Origin: an uncultured Candidatus Saccharibacteria bacterium
Lineage (GTDB): Bacteria > Patescibacteriota > Doudnabacteria > UBA920
NCBI GenBank assembly: GCA_964523855.1
Contig: CAZGAF010000001.1
Span: 38,159 to 73,586, forward strand
Length of the DNA stretch: 35,428 nt
Direction: 5' to 3'
The position numbers and the translations under genes are program-made. The notes below the pieces were generated by a model that was not told the origin of the DNA, made no database searches, and saw nothing but the letters and a program-made list of their open reading frames with translations. Of the stretch, positions 6,142-32,926 are shown piece by piece; the stretch's first letter is position 1, and every line of letters starts with the position of its first letter.

Positions 6142-6435
6142 AATAATTTAATCGATAGTGCTAGTTAATAGTTTTTAGTTTTTGTAGCGCAGGACATTGG
6201 CCTGCTGTATTTTTATTTTAATTCAAAATTAAAAAATCAAAGTTTAAAATTTCAGTTGAAAGTTCAAAATGCAATACTCTATGGAATCTTTTTCTTCGCT
6301 TCTTTTATCTATCATTTCGGACAAATTACAAATTATTAATTTGCTCCGGAATCTAGAACCTAACAATACCCTGTCTTGGGTCCCGGATATTTTTCGCAAA
6401 GCCTCAAAATTCCGGGATGACAATGCATTTTAGTT

Positions 6436-6476
6436 TCAGCGTTTTATCAGCGTACTAAATCAGCGGCCGTTCAGCG
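6436..6476. repeat. four TCAGCG hexamers at 11/13/11-nt spacing
   Basis: TCAGCG at 6436, 6447, 6460 and 6471, immediately downstream of the rpsG stop codon. Confidence 0.5.
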
Positions 6477-6478
6477 AA

Positions 6479-7042
6479 CTAACGTCTCTTATTTCCAAAC
6501 CTTGCAAAGTGGGCAAAAGCTTTGTTAGCTTCAGCCATTCTGTGGGTGTCGTCGCGCTTCTTAATAGCGGCTCCAACTTTGTTAAAGCCGTCAATTATTT
6601 CGGTAGCCAATTTCTGAGCCATAGGAGCGCCTTTTTTTGCGCGGGCAGCAGCAATAAGCCACTTCATACCAATGCTGGTTCTTCTCGGTTCAACAACTTC
6701 CATAGGAACCTGGTAGTTAGCACCACCAATACGGCGGCTCTTAAGTTCCATTATTGGGGAAATGTTTTTTAAAGCAATATCAAAAACCTGGCGGCCGTCC
6801 AACTTTTGAGGTTTAGCTGCCGGTTTGTCAGCGGAAGGCTTAGCTGCTGCAGGCGCAGCGGCTTGCACTAAACTCTCTGCCTTTTCGCCAACTATTTCTA
6901 AAGCGGTGTAAAAAATCTTGCGAGCAACATTTTTCTTTCCGCGCTCCATCATGTAATTTATAAATTTTGCGTACTTAACCGAACCAAACTTTGGGTCAGG
7001 TTCCGGAGTGTGCTTGTCGTAATTTCTAGATTTTCTTGGCAT
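6479..7042 (-). CDS. rpsG: 30S ribosomal protein S7 with an internal Ala/Pro/Lys-rich insertion
   Basis: 187 aa; PDPKFGS..., KSRRIGGANYQVPMEV and HRMAEANKAFAHF are S7 hallmarks. Confidence 0.95.
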   Translation of the reverse strand: MPRKSRNYDKHTPEPDPKFGSVKYAKFINYMMERGKKNVARKIFYTALEIVGEKAESLVQAAAPAAAKPSADKPAAKPQKLDGRQVFDIALKNISPIMELKSRRIGGANYQVPMEVVEPRRTSIGMKWLIAAARAKKGAPMAQKLATEIIDGFNKVGAAIKKRDDTHRMAEANKAFAHFARFGNKRR

Positions 7043-10556: not shown

Positions 10557-10610
10557 GTTAGGGCTTTTAATTTTAAAGAATTTTTGTTAAAATAAACAAA
10601 GTTTTAAATA

Positions 10611-10809
10611 CGGGCTGTAGTATAGTGGTAGTACGCGTCCACTTGCCCTGTTAAATTTTACCCTTGTGCGGGGTATAGTATAGTGGTAGTACGCGCCCAT
10701 GGGGTGGGTGTAGACTGGGTTCGATTCCCAGTACCCCGACCAAGGGTAGAAATATTTAACAGGGTAAAGGGTGAATGTAGTCTGGGTTTGATTCCCAACA
10801 GCCCAACCA
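10611..10809 (+). ncRNA. interrupted/split tRNA-shaped gene (tRNA-Pro paralog) hosting a whole tRNA in its anticodon loop
   Basis: 10611-10640 carries the acceptor 5' strand, a D arm identical to the inner tRNA, and CGTCC. 10769-10809 carries GGGTG, the T arm, the acceptor 3' strand and ACCA. 10645-10666 pairs with 10741-10765 (22 bp, two bulges). Deviations from a normal tRNA: C1.A72, C49.A65, T-loop TTTGATT and an 8-nt variable region. Confidence 0.5.
10669..10742 (+). tRNA. tRNA-Pro (anticodon GGG), CCA encoded
   Basis: Manual cloverleaf: CGGGGTA/TACCCCG acceptor, GTAT/GTAC D stem, CGCCC-AT GGG GT-GGGTG anticodon arm, CTGGG-TTCGATT-CCCAG T arm, discriminator A, CCA. Confidence 0.9.
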
Positions 10810-10923
10810 GCTTTCGCTAAATCTTTTAACTACTCTAGCCACGAGTAAAACAGAAGGTTTATCGAAAAATGTATAAATTGTTATAACGAAAGCTGTGTCC
10901 GACGAAGTTTTAACGAAGTCGGA

Positions 10924-10966
10924 CCAAAGAAAAAAGTATGACTTCATGTCGTGCTTTTTTCTTTGG
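10924..10966. repeat. perfect 13-bp inverted repeat (hairpin) downstream of the tRNA locus
   Basis: CCAAAGAAAAAAG, 17-nt loop, CTTTTTTCTTTGG. It is preceded by the GTCCGAC/GTCGGAC hairpin at 10897-10924. Confidence 0.6.
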
Positions 10967-11080
10967 TTATTGGCAGTAAAATACTATTATATTTGATTGT
11001 GTAGTTGCCTCATTCATGAGGCCAAAAAAGCATAAGCTCATTAAACAGTAGTAACTACTATAATTCTAGCAAAATTCAAT

Positions 11081-11449: not shown

Positions 11450-11520
11450 TGCTCCTCCAACCAAATTTTTACTGCCAAAAAATAGATTTTAATTTTTAAA
11501 AACTATTTTTTTGCAACAAA

Positions 11521-11550
11521 AAGAAAAACCCCCTTTGCAGGGGGTTTTAA
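11521..11550. terminator. intrinsic terminator located inside the leader of the 106-aa ORF
   Basis: AACCCCCT-ttgc-AGGGGGTT with T-runs in both directions. It lies between the promoter at 11631-11658 and the ATG at 11449. Confidence 0.7.
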
Positions 11551-11630
11551 ATTTAAATACTTTAAAACACCACCTGCTTAGGGGGTAATAATAATTATGC
11601 TGCTGTTCTGTATGCGTTTCATATATGTAT

Positions 11631-11658
11631 ATATTATCAAAAGAAAAAATTGTGTCAA
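11631..11658 (-). promoter_or_regulatory. sigma70-like promoter
   Basis: Minus strand reads TTGACA (11653-11658), 16 nt, TAATAT (11631-11636). Confidence 0.5.
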
Positions 11659-11683
11659 ATAAAAAAGCCGATAAAAGCGGCTT
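11659..11683 (-). terminator. intrinsic terminator after the 60-aa ORF
   Basis: Minus strand reads AAGCCG-cttttat-CGGCTT followed by TTTTTTAT. Confidence 0.6.
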
Positions 11684-11730
11684 AATATACAACTGCCAGA
11701 GAAACTGGCAAAAGCAGAAACTGATTGCGG

Positions 11731-11913
11731 CTAACAGGAAATTAAAGATTGGCGACTAGACGCTCTGAGACGCCGGTATAACTCTTCGAACAAATCTGAA
11801 CAACATTCGAAAACTTGATCGCGGCTTGGCTTAAACCAAGCTGGGTACCGCATCGTAATGCGCCACGAAATCTCATCTTGTATCTTCCTAATTTCCGGAT
11901 CCTCGCTCGTCAT
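11731..11913 (-). CDS. orphan micro-protein (60 aa)
   Basis: GGAGGA 3 nt upstream of the ATG at 11913 (MTSEDPEIRK...). Its own terminator is downstream. Confidence 0.45.
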   Translation of the reverse strand: MTSEDPEIRKIQDEISWRITMRYPAWFKPSRDQVFECCSDLFEELYRRLRASSRQSLISC

Positions 11914-12211
11914 CCGTCCTCCTCTACAAACTAACTTCAAACACCAAAAATGTGGTCAAAATATTTTTAACAAAACTTTTGGAATATGAATTTTTTGGGG
12001 AAGAGACAGCGCCGAATGTCTCTGTGTTAAGTGGTTTGGAAAAGATTAGCACACGTGCTAAGATCTTTTTCTGTACACAAACAACACTCGGCGCTGAAGA
12101 TCTGGCTCCAACAGTTTTCACCATGGAGCCTAAGCTACATTAGTTCTGAACGAAAGACCTATTTGGTCTTTAGCTGCCGATTACTCGGTCAGCTTTTCGC
12201 CCAGTTGGAGA

Positions 12212-12385
12212 TCAGGTCAAGCAATAATGTCTGAGCTCTTCACCAAGCTCGTGCTTGATCCGTCTCGGATTTTGGCCTGTCGACTCAAGCATTGCTCTTG
12301 TCAACTTTATGGCCTGAATACCAGACGGGTCTACCTGATCAACTTTTATTTCCTCAGTAACAAGGAGCGCGGGATCCTCATTCAT
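12212..12385 (-). CDS. orphan micro-protein (57 aa; not in the ORF track)
   Basis: Hand translation: MNEDPALLVTEEIKVDQVDPSGIQAIKLTRAMLESTGQNPRRIKHELGEELRHYCLT. GGAGG lies 9 nt upstream of the ATG at 12385. Confidence 0.45.
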   Translation of the reverse strand: MNEDPALLVTEEIKVDQVDPSGIQAIKLTRAMLESTGQNPRRIKHELGEELRHYCLT

Positions 12386-12855
12386 CGGAATATTCCTCCG
12401 GTTTGATTGCCCACCAACGGAGGCGGGCTGGAGATTACTAGGTAGTCAAACACCGGTTGATGCTTTTTTGGTCAACCTTGTTGTACAAGGTTAATTACAG
12501 ACTACCTAAATTTGGCGGTGGCTTAACAGGTTACTGCAGGCATATTATTGCAACTTAACACAGCGGGCCAAGGGCGCCCATTACCCTGTCGAAAGTTTTT
12601 GGCTTTGCTTCACCAAAGTGACCTTCCGCCACCATAACTTGTCGGGTGGTTTTCAAACCTGACTCATGTTCCTCTCTCTCCGTGCGCTAGGCCAAAGAAC
12701 ATTAAGTCAAATTCTATTGGAGCGTTTCCGCTCATTTAGCTTAATTAAGCCAAAGACCAAAATTTGGTCACATCCACCCATAACTTTTGCAGACTCTTTG
12801 CGTCTACAGGCATGTAAACTTTAAAACCAAACCTTACATACCTTTAAACGCATTT
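12386..12855 (-). ncRNA. candidate structured RNA / long structured 5' leader
   Basis: No credible ORF on either strand. Contains a 9-bp closing stem (12439-12447/12500-12508) around two hairpins, a GAGCG-GAAA-CGCTC GNRA hairpin (12720-12733 on the minus strand), and two stems that carry G.U on the minus strand but C.A on the plus strand. A CCUCCG segment pairs with the SD of the 57-aa ORF. Confidence 0.35.
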
Positions 12856-12996
12856 TAAAACCCCGCTTCTTGCGGGGTTGTGTTTAGGTGTAATTTTAGA
12901 CCGTGTTCACACCTCACCCCGCGCGCCCAAAAGGACGGCCTTCACAAAGACCGGGCGAATAGAAATGAGGTTGTGTATATTCTGTAACATCTTAAA
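12856..12996 (-). promoter_or_regulatory. candidate transcription attenuator (terminator/antiterminator) or ~140-nt sRNA
   Basis: On the minus strand, GCGGGGT (12916-12922) and GCGGGGTT (12859-12866) compete for the same AACCCCGC (12872-12879). The downstream pairing is followed by UUUU. Confidence 0.4.
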
Positions 12997-13002
12997 AACA
13001 AT

Positions 13003-13029
13003 ATTATACCTATCGCTTTCACCTGTCAA
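13003..13029 (-). promoter_or_regulatory. promoter with consensus hexamers but a short spacer
   Basis: Minus strand reads TTGACA (13024-13029), 15 nt, TATAAT (13003-13008). Confidence 0.4.
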
Positions 13030-13207
13030 GCGAGTTATCAACAAGGGAAATTAAATTGCTCTAATTTCTAATTAACCTAATTGACTTATAAAATGTCTAA
13101 TTTCTAAATTGAGGCTTGGAATTTGTTTAAAATAATTAGGGTAATTATAATAATTTACATACATGTACAACAAATTCGAATTCTCCTAACAAATCTTATT
13201 ATATTTT

Positions 13208-30104: not shown

Positions 30105-30458
30105 TTATGCTAAATTCTTTTTTATTTCTTCCACTACTCCATTTAAATTATTTAATACGTCTTTATTTTGAAATCTTATAATTTTGATATTTTGCAGGAC
30201 AATAAAATTGGTTCTTTTAAAATCCTTTTCCTGAGCATTTAAGCTATTGTGGCTTTCGCCATCTAACTCAATCCCCAAATGTTTTTCGTGGCAATAAAAA
30301 TCTATTATATAATAACCTACCCCATACTGCCTTCTAAATTTAACACCAAGCTTACTGCATTTTAGTTGGTTCCACAAAATAATTTCGGGCAAGCCCAAAT
30401 TATTTCTCAGCTCTTTTCTTCTTTGTTTATATTTCGGATTATTGAAAATGTAATCCAT
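30105..30458 (-). CDS. DUF559 (Vsr/restriction-endonuclease-like) domain protein
   Basis: 117 aa; LWNQLK...KFRRQYGVGYYIIDFYC....LGIELDG..H......D..R...L......IRF.N..V matches the DUF559 pattern. Confidence 0.82.
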   Translation of the reverse strand: MDYIFNNPKYKQRRKELRNNLGLPEIILWNQLKCSKLGVKFRRQYGVGYYIIDFYCHEKHLGIELDGESHNSLNAQEKDFKRTNFIVLQNIKIIRFQNKDVLNNLNGVVEEIKKNLA

Positions 30459-30611: not shown

Positions 30612-31967
30612 TTATACCAACTGTTTTTCTATATACCCTTTGAGCTCCTCGATCTTCACCCGTTCCTGCTGTTTGGTGTCTCGATTTCTAACTGTCACAG
30701 CTCCATCGTTTAGACTATCAAAATCAACAGTTATGCAAAACGGCGTACCGATTTCGTCTTGGCTATAATAACGCTTGCCTACATTCCCCCTGTCGTCCCA
30801 AGCCACCATAAAATCTTTTCTTAAAGAATCGTAAATTTCCCTGGCTTTAGAAACCAACTCGGGTTTATTTTTCAAAAGAGGAAAAACCGCAGCTTTGTAC
30901 GGAGCAAGCTTGTTAGGTAATTTTAAAGTTATGTTCTCCGGGTCGCTGTCGTCATAAGCAGAAGTAAGTACGGCCAAAAAAGTACGGCTAACGCCCCATG
31001 TCGGCTCTACACAATGTGGTAAAACTTTTTCGCCAGTCTGTGGGTCGGTGTACTCCAAAGACTCACCAGACTTTTCTTGATGGTTTTTTAAATCGTAATC
31101 GGTTCTATACGCAAGCCCATAAAGTTCTTTTTGTCCAAATGGGAACTTAAATTCGGTATCTATGCTTCTCTTACTGTAGTGAGCCCTGTCTGCCTCAGGT
31201 ATTTCTACAAAAACAGCGTTCTCGAATATTCCAAGTTCTTTGCACCATTCTTTTTGCATTTCTAGCCAGTACTCAAACCACTTTTCCCATTCCCCAGGCC
31301 TGACGAAAAATTCTATTTCCATTTGTTCAAACTCGCGAGTCCTGAAAATAAAATTCCCTGGAGTAATTTCATTTCGAAAAGCTGGTCCAATTTGCGCAAT
31401 ACCAAAAGGCAACTGCTTTCGGGAAGTTCCTAGAATATTTTTAAAATTTACAAACATACCTTGGGCAGTTTCCGGTCTTAAATACACTTTGGAATTCTCA
31501 TCTTCAACAGGGCCTAAGTTTGTCTTAAACATCATGTTGAACTTTTTCGGCTCAGTTAGTTCGTTACCAGCAGGCGACTTTAAACCCATTTCTCTAACCT
31601 TTTCCACCATTTGTTCAAAAGTCATACCGGAAACTTGCACGCCGTTATCTTCGAGTAAGTGGTCGAGTCTAAAACGCTCGTGAGTTTTTTTATCTTCAAC
31701 TAAAGGATCGTTAAAAGTGTCCACATGTCCGGAAGCTTGCCAAACTTTTGGGTTCATAATCAAGGCCGCATCTACACCAACCACGTCGTCTCTTTGCTGT
31801 ACAAACTTTTTCCACCATAACTGTTTAATGTTATTTTTTAATTCCACTCCCAAAGGTCCATAGTCCCAACTATTGGCAAGTCCACCATAAATTTCACTCC
31901 CAGGAAAAACGAATCCGCGTCTTTTACACAGACTCACAATTTTATCCATCTTGTTATTTTCTTCCAT
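30612..31967 (-). CDS. glyQS: glycine--tRNA ligase (alpha2 type)
   Basis: IVSLCKRRGFVFPGSEIYGG N-terminal signature plus class II motifs. The start is uncertain: ATG at 31967 is used here, with alternatives at 32018 and 31949. Confidence 0.92.
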   Translation of the reverse strand: MEENNKMDKIVSLCKRRGFVFPGSEIYGGLANSWDYGPLGVELKNNIKQLWWKKFVQQRDDVVGVDAALIMNPKVWQASGHVDTFNDPLVEDKKTHERFRLDHLLEDNGVQVSGMTFEQMVEKVREMGLKSPAGNELTEPKKFNMMFKTNLGPVEDENSKVYLRPETAQGMFVNFKNILGTSRKQLPFGIAQIGPAFRNEITPGNFIFRTREFEQMEIEFFVRPGEWEKWFEYWLEMQKEWCKELGIFENAVFVEIPEADRAHYSKRSIDTEFKFPFGQKELYGLAYRTDYDLKNHQEKSGESLEYTDPQTGEKVLPHCVEPTWGVSRTFLAVLTSAYDDSDPENITLKLPNKLAPYKAAVFPLLKNKPELVSKAREIYDSLRKDFMVAWDDRGNVGKRYYSQDEIGTPFCITVDFDSLNDGAVTVRNRDTKQQERVKIEELKGYIEKQLV

Positions 31968-32095
31968 AACGTTTTCTTTATTAATAACCTTTAAATGCAA
32001 GCTCGTTTTACCGTTCACATAAAATTAATATCCAATATTATATCATAACCTCATAGTAGTAAAAAAGCAAAAACACTTCACTAAGGAGGAAGAAC

Positions 32096-32926
32096 TTGAA
32101 ACTCAGCGTGTTAGGATGCGGAGCCCCGGTGTCTCACTTGTCATATGTGAAAACACACAGCCCTTCTGCCTATCTTTTGGAGTGGGGCCATAGCGGAAAG
32201 CTCTTGTTGGAATGCAGCACTGGAATTCAGGACAGGCTAAAAAAACAAGGAGTAGACATTGCGGACATTACCGACATCTTTCTGTCTCACATACACACAG
32301 ACCACACGGGCGGCTTTCCCAGCCTCTACCAAGACTTGTGGCTAAATACCTTATGGGAAGAAAGCGAGGAGAGAAAAACAAGAACCTCAGCGCCCAGAAA
32401 CATATACGCGTCACGGCAAACACATCGCCACTTAAGGAAAATACTAGAGCTTCTCATGCCGGAAAGCAAAGGCCGGCTATACCCGTTCCCCAAGCTAACC
32501 TTTGTAAACATAATCGGCCGAAGCCGACTGGAACTCAACTGCGCCAAACTCAAAACTTTTCAGAACTTTCACGGAGGCGGTAAAGTACAAAGCCTTTCTC
32601 TGCGCGTGGAAGCCCCCGAAGGAGTTTTTGTGTATTCAGGCGACACCGGCATCTGCCCGGGCATAGAAGAAGCGTGCCAAGGCGCGGACATTTTCTTATG
32701 CGAAGCCTGCGCTATGACTGACGCAGAAATGCGAAGCCACGGACATTTAACTCCTAAAGAGGCTGGAAACATAGCCCGAATGGGTAAGGTTAAGAAACTG
32801 GTTTTAACTCACCTAGCAGCACCGAGGCTAAAGAGTCCGGAAGTTGTAATTCAAGAAGCTCTAAGTTCTGGCTTTGCGGGCAAAATTCAAATCGCCCGAG
32901 ACGGCGATACAATACTGCTGCCCTAG
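32096..32926 (+). CDS. MBL-fold metallo-hydrolase (RNase Z/BN-like)
   Basis: TTG start with AAGGAGG 6 nt upstream; HIHTDHTGG (HxHxDH), SGDTG, HGH and LTHL motifs. Clearly G+C-richer than its neighbours. Confidence 0.82.
   Translation: MKLSVLGCGAPVSHLSYVKTHSPSAYLLEWGHSGKLLLECSTGIQDRLKKQGVDIADITDIFLSHIHTDHTGGFPSLYQDLWLNTLWEESEERKTRTSAPRNIYASRQTHRHLRKILELLMPESKGRLYPFPKLTFVNIIGRSRLELNCAKLKTFQNFHGGGKVQSLSLRVEAPEGVFVYSGDTGICPGIEEACQGADIFLCEACAMTDAEMRSHGHLTPKEAGNIARMGKVKKLVLTHLAAPRLKSPEVVIQEALSSGFAGKIQIARDGDTILLP

Follow-up and report, generated by a model that had tools for sequence, protein, structure and literature searches.

A complete tRNA-Pro(GGG) gene nested in the anticodon loop of a decayed tRNA-Pro(GGG) gene in Candidate Phyla Radiation bacteria

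Introduction

How does a bacterium come to carry one complete tRNA gene inside the anticodon loop of another, and what has become of the gene that was interrupted? The question is raised by positions 10611–10809 of a 35,428-nt stretch of contig CAZGAF010000001.1 (assembly GCA_964523855.1), which comes from a bacterium of the Candidate Phyla Radiation (CPR, or Patescibacteria) and is called the window below; all positions refer to it. Here a tRNA-Pro(GGG) gene sits on a helix of about 24 bp, which a second tRNA-shaped gene in turn holds in its anticodon loop. The initial annotation of this locus left three readings side by side: a tRNA-in-tRNA intron, or a split tRNA, that is spliced; insertion into a tRNA gene of a small tRNA-carrying element bounded by terminal inverted repeats; and a decaying pseudogene. 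We compared the locus with loci from other assemblies, which are numbered L001, L002 and so on, and arrive with moderate confidence at an account that joins the second and third of these readings.

Results

Architecture of the nested locus

The minimum free energy fold of 10611–10809 is a cloverleaf within a cloverleaf of −88.9 kcal/mol, compared with −62.7 ± 4.6 kcal/mol for dinucleotide shuffles (z = −5.7), none of 200 shuffles reaching the energy of the locus. Together with the positions of the repeats, this bears out the nested geometry that had been described from the sequence. The proposed pairing of 10645–10666 with 10741–10765 is likewise present, and the inverted repeats in fact extend to 10643–10666 and 10741–10767, forming terminal inverted repeats of the type that characterizes miniature inverted-repeat transposable elements (MITEs). 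Folded alone, the duplex of the two arms has an energy of −32.8 kcal/mol, the mean of 500 shuffles being −11.1 and the best −24.3 kcal/mol. The segments outside the arms, 10611–10641 and 10769–10809, are direct-repeat copies of the two halves of the inner tRNA (90% and 80% identity, respectively). An independent Logan assembly (L001, SRR12404947) reproduces the 5′ side of the locus, from the outer 5′ half through the left arm into the beginning of the inner tRNA, and independent support is limited to this side. The parts of the locus are as follows, with L002 (GCA_016788665.1) as the closest relative.

10582–10610, + strand: upstream flank of the outer tRNA, homologous to the flank 5′ of the uninterrupted tRNA-Pro in L002 and L035
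10611–10641, + strand: 5′ half of the outer tRNA-Pro(GGG), comprising the acceptor strand, the D arm, the 5′ strand of the anticodon stem and A32; probable relic of the resident gene
10642–10668, + strand: loop remnant CTT, left helix arm (10643–10666) and 2-nt linker TG, as given by the fold and the duplex fold; homologous left arms in L020 and L021
10669–10742, + strand: inner tRNA-Pro(GGG), presumed functional, called by ARAGORN and Rfam
10741–10768, + strand: right helix arm (10741–10767), bulged, overlapping the CA of the inner CCA and ending in the conserved GGGTAAA
10769–10809, + strand: 3′ half of the outer tRNA-Pro (positions 35–76), with four transitions; 37 of 41 nt identical to the L002 tRNA
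10811–11080, no strand assigned: 270-nt window-specific stretch beside the inverted tRNA segment, with several hairpins; a gap in the collinear blastn map against L002

Only one tRNA was called in the region, at 10669–10742, by both ARAGORN, as Pro(ggg), and the Rfam model RF00005, with a score of 55.5 bits against a gathering score of 29, in agreement with its earlier assignment as a tRNA-Pro(GGG) with an encoded CCA. The proposed check with ARAGORN and Infernal, including intron models, thus found the inner gene and left the outer one uncalled, both in Rfam and in the intron mode of ARAGORN (0–400 nt), which returned inner tRNAs only. The cloverleaf of the inner gene is flawless (CGGGGTA...TACCCCG-A-CCA, with C1-G72, A73 and anticodon GGG). 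In bacteria, proline identity, as defined for E. coli ProRS, is conferred by C1-G72, A73, G35 and G36, and the entire set can be read from the sequence of the inner gene.

Relatives carry the ortholog of the outer gene as an uninterrupted tRNA-Pro(GGG)

The best named relatives of a 149-aa membrane protein encoded beside the locus belong to Candidatus Doudnabacteria, and in L002 this protein is 81% and ParB 91.6% identical to its counterpart in the window. When orthologous loci were compared, as the initial annotation had suggested, a single uninterrupted tRNA-Pro was found at the same locus in five relatives (L002, L003, L034, L035 and L036), and against it the outer gene of the window proved to be decayed. 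Its 5′ half is identical to the first 31 nt of the L002 tRNA-Pro(GGG) (31/31), and its 3′ half matches at 37 of 41 nt. The outer-type 5′ half is present in 16 GTDB species representatives, drawn from several CPR groups, and the gene is uninterrupted in every one of them; in nine, the 74-nt tRNA of L002 recurs base for base. The L002 tRNA is the exact CPR consensus and not a chimera of inner and outer sequences. This comparison identifies the outer gene as orthologous to a tRNA-Pro(GGG) with hardly any variation across the CPR, and as the resident gene of the lineage.

The four substitutions in the 3′ half are derived G>A or C>T transitions, G40A (10774), C56T (10789), G65A (10798) and G72A (10805), and each of them falls on a paired or universally conserved position, either a stem pair or C56. 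They leave the outer gene with the mismatches C1.A72, C30.A40 and C49.A65 and with U56, to which a 2-nt insertion, CT, in the loop is added; it differs from the CPR consensus at six positions. Three of these defects (C1.A72, C49.A65 and U56) had been recognized before, in a list that lacked C30.A40. With its 127-nt interruption and its stem mismatches, the outer gene has neither an intact 7-nt anticodon loop nor intact stems.

Because the relatives carry the same tRNA without interruption, orthology also corrects the reading of the outer gene at three points. The 3′ strand of the anticodon stem is GAATG (10773–10777) rather than GGGTG, and GGGT (10769–10772) corresponds to loop residues 35–38; with GGGT in the loop, the variable region has the normal 4 nt, TAGT, instead of 8. 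The insert is not 121 nt long but spans 10642–10768 (127 nt), replacing T33-G34, which can equally be described as a CT insertion followed by a 123-nt cassette at 10646–10768.

Related inserts occupy the same site in two distant lineages

Metagenome assemblies were scanned for a tRNA-Pro 5′ half followed 21–51 nt later by the D arm of a second tRNA, a pattern designed for nested pairs only. It returned two loci, L020 and L021, with an architecture like that of the window. L020 belongs to Candidatus Moranbacteria GW2011_GWE1_49_15 and is identical in seven further assemblies (eight in total, from JGI, ENA and NCBI). It consists of the outer 5′ half, GCCCTGAAGTAAAATTTT, an inner tRNA-Pro(GGG), GAGACC, GAAAATTTACTACAGGGT, AAA and the outer 3′ half, and folds as a full cloverleaf in a cloverleaf (z = −4.8); in its outer gene, positions 1 and 72 mismatch (G1.G72) and the variable region contains an additional hairpin of 35 nt. 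L021, which is identical in the ENA contig L029, represents a distant lineage whose ParB is 52% identical to that of the window. Its arms are TCCCCGCACTAAATTTTT and AAAAATTAGTGCGGGGT, the latter followed by ATA, and its outer gene shows a C30.C40 mismatch (read from the sequence), has a hairpin in the variable region and about 55 nt in excess, and is degenerate in its T arm. The 3′ strand of its outer acceptor stem, CATTCCGACCA, is displaced by about 75 nt beyond the degenerate T arm (6405–6470, − strand), and the acceptor strands still pair (CGGAGTG/CATTCCG). The extra segment that precedes CATTCCGACCA contains GCGGGATCCCGC and CCGCCTTCGGCGG hairpins, which suggests a third insertion into the same gene or a recombination in its T loop.

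The inner tRNAs are flawless in all three loci, the outer genes are defective in all three, each in its own way, and the inserts occupy the same site in the loop within one or two nt. The three loci have no neighboring gene in common. By sequence comparison, the cassettes form a family present in at least three CPR lineages, always at this one site. For L020 and L021, synteny walks in search of orthologous empty or filled sites reached relatives at 54–61% identity that had no tRNA at that place.

The ends of the inserts are common to the three loci (CCCYG...CRGGGT-A(A/T)A-GGT), and the interiors of the arms have diverged yet are still complementary. RNAalifold recovers the arm helix, and the test for compensatory change that had been proposed for it gave four arm pairs altered on both sides with pairing retained. 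Where the arms of a locus mismatch, they do so by G.U pairs on the tRNA strand (two in the window, one each in L020 and L021) and never by A.C, a bias that favors selection on the sense RNA. The terminal CAGGGTAAAGG of the right arm of the window also occurs in L020 and in no other of the 33 loci compared.

A search of the 35-kb window for further arm copies with up to three mismatches returned the one copy at the locus, giving no sign of the many dispersed copies by which the initial annotation would have recognized an ordinary mobile element. As the homologous units recovered by the nested-pair scan lie only in the tRNA-Pro(GGG) genes of two other CPR lineages, the insert looks more like a cassette with a specific target than like an ordinary element of the dispersed type. 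The arms and the related inserts in L020 and L021 support the reading of a small tRNA-carrying element with terminal inverted repeats, with which the reading as a decaying outer pseudogene, supported by the four transitions, is compatible.

An old cassette in a young outer gene

The inner and outer genes of the window differ at 13 of 73 aligned positions, including the compensated pairs 5:68 and 7:66 in the acceptor stem and 29:41 in the anticodon stem. The inner type of acceptor stem occurs in free-standing tRNAs of other CPR genomes (L005, L008 and L016), around which inspection by eye revealed no leader–trailer helices. Across the loci, each outer gene is closer to free-standing tRNAs (5–6 differences) than to its own inner gene (13–16 differences). 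Judged from these sequences, the inner gene is not a recent local copy of the outer one. For the same reason, gene conversion between inner and outer genes was rejected as the cause of the young appearance of the outer genes.

An old, diverged cassette with conserved ends and a preserved helix, young outer genes that still resemble the free-standing tRNA of their lineage, and empty sites in close relatives together point to a cassette that arrived horizontally and disrupted the resident gene after the window lineage had split from that of L002. We consider it reasonably probable that a horizontally acquired replacement tRNA cassette flanked by inverted repeats interrupted the resident tRNA-Pro(GGG), and that the outer halves are relics which survive as by-products of RNase P and 3′ processing. 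Entry may have occurred by homologous recombination through the tRNA halves, whose 31 and 41 nt hardly vary across the CPR, or by means of an undetected site-specific enzyme. The whole unit would be transcribed from the resident promoter; the upstream flank of about 30 nt is conserved with L002 and L035 and accompanied the tRNA when it moved. Cleavage by RNase P at +1 of the inner tRNA, followed by 3′ trimming, would release the inner tRNA, which would now do the decoding, and the arm helix (17–24 bp) may in addition be cleaved by RNase III. The two outer halves would remain as non-decoding by-products, free to decay. Such a cassette would not be easily lost, since it destroys the resident copy while supplying its replacement.

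Several observations weigh against this account. No mechanism of mobility was found, no target-site duplication (there is no direct repeat flanking the arms in the window) and no additional copy in the window. The decay of the outer gene in the window, 4/41 nt in the 3′ half against 0/31 in the 5′ half, is not significantly asymmetric and by itself reveals little on where constraint acts. A homologous hairpin of about 35–40 nt follows the outer anticodon stem, before the variable loop, in both L020 (about 950–990, − strand) and L021 (about 6505–6545, − strand). Its pairing is kept by compensatory change (TAGC/GCTA versus TACT/AGTA), which is not expected of dead DNA; this hairpin, lacking in the outer gene of the window, is either a second palindromic insertion or a functional arm. 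The outer gene of L020 is nearly intact, and removal of its two inserts leaves a clean tRNA-Pro(GGG). Inner and outer genes agree in each locus on whether CCA is encoded, which may indicate that the two have long resided together or that the donor belonged to the same clade. Finally, the family has only three members, found with a pattern that demands conserved D-arm and anticodon-stem sequence.

The search for a source or a mechanism covered several further possibilities. The tRNA D-arm/anticodon-stem pattern had 0 matches in IMG/VR that would suggest a viral source. No recombinase gene lies in the window, where the tRNA halves are nested and not repeated in the manner of attL and attR. Sequences in the window arms that resemble integron attC cores (GTTAAAT/ATTTAAC) are in the wrong order and not conserved in L020 or L021, and were dismissed as coincidence. 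No integrase, transposase, reverse transcriptase, EndA or RtcB was found among the open reading frames (ORFs) of the 35-kb window, the comparison for EndA and RtcB covering ORFs of at least 80 aa on the main coding strand; the EndA-like and RtcB-type genes for which the initial annotation had proposed a search therefore have no match there.

Alternative explanations

The shared hairpin and the compensated arms could also mean that the nested state is itself selected. On that account the outer halves and the arm helix would be kept as a non-decoding RNA scaffold. Shaped like a tRNA, this leader and trailer would bring in RNase P, RNase III or RNase Z or position them, stabilize the precursor or determine how much inner tRNA is made. 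The maintenance of the helix through compensatory change in three lineages would be explained in this way, as would the complete cloverleaf formed by the outer gene of L020, the paired variable-region hairpin common to L020 and L021, the unchanged 31 nt of the 5′ half in the window and the acceptor strands of L021 that pair in spite of a wrecked T arm. However, close relatives thrive with a plain tRNA gene, the defects of the outer genes are not the same in every locus (they affect the 1:72 pair, the T arm or position 40), and conservation of the arms is expected equally from processing of the inner tRNA or from mobility of the cassette alone. We regard a scaffold as improbable.

An ancient and purely vertical history would dispense with mobility. 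The nested gene would have arisen once, by local rearrangement in an ancestor of the CPR, and would have been lost repeatedly by recombination between direct repeats. The direct repeats of the inner and outer halves could remove the arms and restore a single tRNA, CCA encoding agrees within each locus, and the tRNA-Pro locus is often rearranged, as seen from its changes of orientation and from an att-like 3′ fragment in L034 (see below). Against such a history, a non-functional outer gene would not keep 94–100% identity to the consensus of free-standing tRNAs across phylum-level time, the outer genes have not been homogenized by the inner ones, and the L002 tRNA, as the exact CPR consensus, shows no trace of a chimera. 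This makes common descent from one ancient nested gene unlikely. Both this explanation and the scaffold nevertheless retain some standing because the outer gene of L020 is nearly intact, the L020/L021 hairpin is conserved and CCA encoding agrees.

A true tRNA-in-tRNA intron or cis-split tRNA, in which the outer halves are ligated or work as a paired two-piece tRNA and each locus yields two tRNA-Pro, is less likely still. The insert does lie in the anticodon loop, as introns do, and exact excision of CCCTG...GGGTAAA from L020 restores the loop AUGGGGU, the only such case among the three loci; ARAGORN calls the spliced L020 product a tRNA-Pro(GGG), though only if the variable hairpin is removed as well or the threshold is relaxed. 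In the window, removal of the insert in silico leaves loops of 8 or 9 nt that ARAGORN reads as Phe(AAA), Pro(UGG) or undefined depending on the cut, which does away with the formal anticodon UUA and the suppressor role that had been considered, and in L021 a loop of 6 nt remains by inspection of the sequence. A bulge-helix-bulge intron, or one with the relaxed hBH motif, was rejected, the geometry being absent from all three folds: the helix is continuous over 17–24 bp, the residues left unpaired at its base number 1 and 4 nt in L020 against about 3–4 and 3 nt in the window, and the 4-bp helix between two 3-nt bulges does not occur. A group I intron, judged by a match to the Intron_gpI covariance model and a length above about 200 nt, was rejected as well, as in the initial annotation; the Intron_gpI model gave no match, neither at the gathering score nor at E ≤ 1, and 74 of the 127 nt of the insert are tRNA. 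The outer gene of the window further carries C1.A72, C30.A40, C49.A65 and U56, four structure-breaking substitutions, and the same tRNA is uninterrupted in close relatives.

As for ligation, RtcB-family ligase genes occur in the CPR contigs L026–L028 (about 4935–5753 in L026), which are related to the neighborhood of the Moranbacteria locus, so that some CPR genomes are capable of RNA ligation. The ends produced by RNase P and RNase III, 5′-phosphate and 3′-OH, are not substrates of RtcB, and the halves released here would be unsuitable for it. No EndA is encoded among the window ORFs, and none is known from bacteria.

An assembly artefact joining two strain variants of tRNA-Pro is hardly credible: the assembly is of metagenome type and only the 5′ junction has been reproduced independently, but that junction is present in a separate Logan assembly, the same architecture recurs with different sequences in L020 (eight assemblies) and in L021 and L029, and chimeric joins would not yield complementary arms.

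Genomic surroundings

The window is a piece of an ordinary CPR chromosome, with genes for ribosomal proteins, EF-Tu, EF-G, LeuRS, MetRS, GlyRS, ParB, SHMT and TGT. It is collinear with L002 (4853–4967 in the compared region) except that 10582–10810 is inverted and 10811–11080 has no counterpart. Accordingly, blastn aligns 10582–10641 with L002 4861–4923 on the same strand, against reverse matches in the DNA around it; the stretch 10588–10636 also matches L035. Outside the window, 10811–11080 finds only short hairpin matches. The tRNA-Pro and the gene for the 149-aa protein are divergent in the window, L034 and L035 and co-oriented in L002, L003 and L036. In L034, a 25-nt copy of the tRNA-Pro 3′ end (1166–1190) lies about 140 nt downstream of the full gene as an att-like scar. 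These changes of orientation and the scar mark the tRNA-Pro(GGG) as a recombination hot spot in these genomes. A hairpin, CCATGAACC...GGTTCATGG, begins in the CCA end of the tRNA-Pro in L036 (about 1445–1480) and in L009, and joins the fragment in L034. A scan for promoter and terminator consensus sequences was uninformative.

Other features of the window were noted in passing. The class II synthetase at 30612–32018 was considered as ProRS and proved to be GlyRS. The interval 11465–13207 (about 1.7 kb) contains no ORF of at least 80 aa and has patches of 79–94% nucleotide identity to L002 and a GC content of up to 0.455; the best patch, 11976–12094 at 94%, exceeds the adjacent coding DNA in identity, and no credible Rfam match was obtained. 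The interval may hold an unannotated structured RNA or decayed genes. A 23S_rRNA_IVP gene that L002 carries in the corresponding interval is absent from the window. A small DUF559 ORF (30105–30458, − strand) has a Vsr-like endonuclease fold, and an MBL-fold protein (32096–32926, + strand) has sub-threshold similarity to RNase Z and cyclic-nucleotide phosphodiesterase; neither was connected with the tRNA locus.

Discussion

The locus combines traits of several known systems. Archaeal tRNAs with introns, and split tRNAs such as those of Nanoarchaeum and Caldivirga, are also interrupted in the anticodon loop, with a flanking helix that holds the two halves together, and archaeal tRNA-Trp introns can carry a functional RNA, a box C/D small RNA. 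In contrast to these, the host here is a bacterium, no bulge-helix-bulge and no consistent splice product exist, the outer gene is decaying, and the nested RNA is a complete isoacceptor tRNA that would replace the host gene. Group I introns occupy the same loop and are the only established class of bacterial tRNA interruption, the catalogue by Williams listing no other, but the present insert of about 125 nt lacks a ribozyme core and consists mostly of tRNA.

In ribosomal RNA (rRNA), bacterial intervening sequences are excised by RNase III without religation, and they are common in the rRNA of the CPR. Like them, the insert forms a helix in a loop of a structural RNA and is probably removed by ordinary nucleases that leave fragments; unlike them, its host is a tRNA, whose function is abolished by a cut in the anticodon loop, it carries a gene of its own, and cleavage by RNase III, for which the helix is of suitable length, is here only predicted. 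Integrative elements and genomic islands, as Williams is said to have described in 2002, target tRNA genes and carry a replacement tRNA segment. The tRNA target and the restoration of function by incoming DNA would be common to both, and the 25-nt 3′ fragment at the tRNA-Pro of L034 resembles an att scar; yet an integrase is absent, as is a direct repeat of the 3′ segment, and a unit of about 125 nt bears a whole nested tRNA instead of a fused 3′ part. With MITEs the insert shares terminal inverted repeats of about 22 bp, small size and the lack of transposase coding capacity. It departs from them in having no target-site duplication, no dispersed copies in 35 kb and a tRNA as cargo; moreover, the three known copies share one site in one tRNA gene, and the mismatches, confined to G.U, suggest an RNA helix. 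We place the locus with tRNA genes disrupted by insertion, or with elements bearing a replacement tRNA. Insertion of mobile elements has been put forward as a model for the disrupted tRNA genes of archaea (PMC3293823; reviewed in PMC4390854).

Full-text literature searches found no prior description of nested tRNA genes in bacteria or in the CPR. Since tRNA finders report the inner gene only, nested loci are invisible in current annotations. Interruptions of bacterial tRNA genes have been thought to be limited to group I introns or large, integrase-borne islands; the present locus is of a third kind, a unit of about 125 nt with a whole isoacceptor tRNA on a conserved helix, which three distant CPR lineages carry at the same position of the loop. 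In its boldest form, which we advance tentatively and with more doubt than conviction, the finding would reveal an undescribed class of selfish replacement-tRNA cassettes in the CPR, with ends CCCYG...CRGGGTAWA, that home to the loop of the cognate tRNA across phylum-level distances, perhaps without an enzyme of their own through recombination of the tRNA halves, and become indispensable once the resident copy has been killed. If the outer halves have a role, the locus would represent a new pre-tRNA architecture. Should the cassette prove mobile, it would amount to a minimal element for gene replacement, addiction-like in its logic, and to a natural example of how insertions can give rise to disrupted or split tRNA genes.

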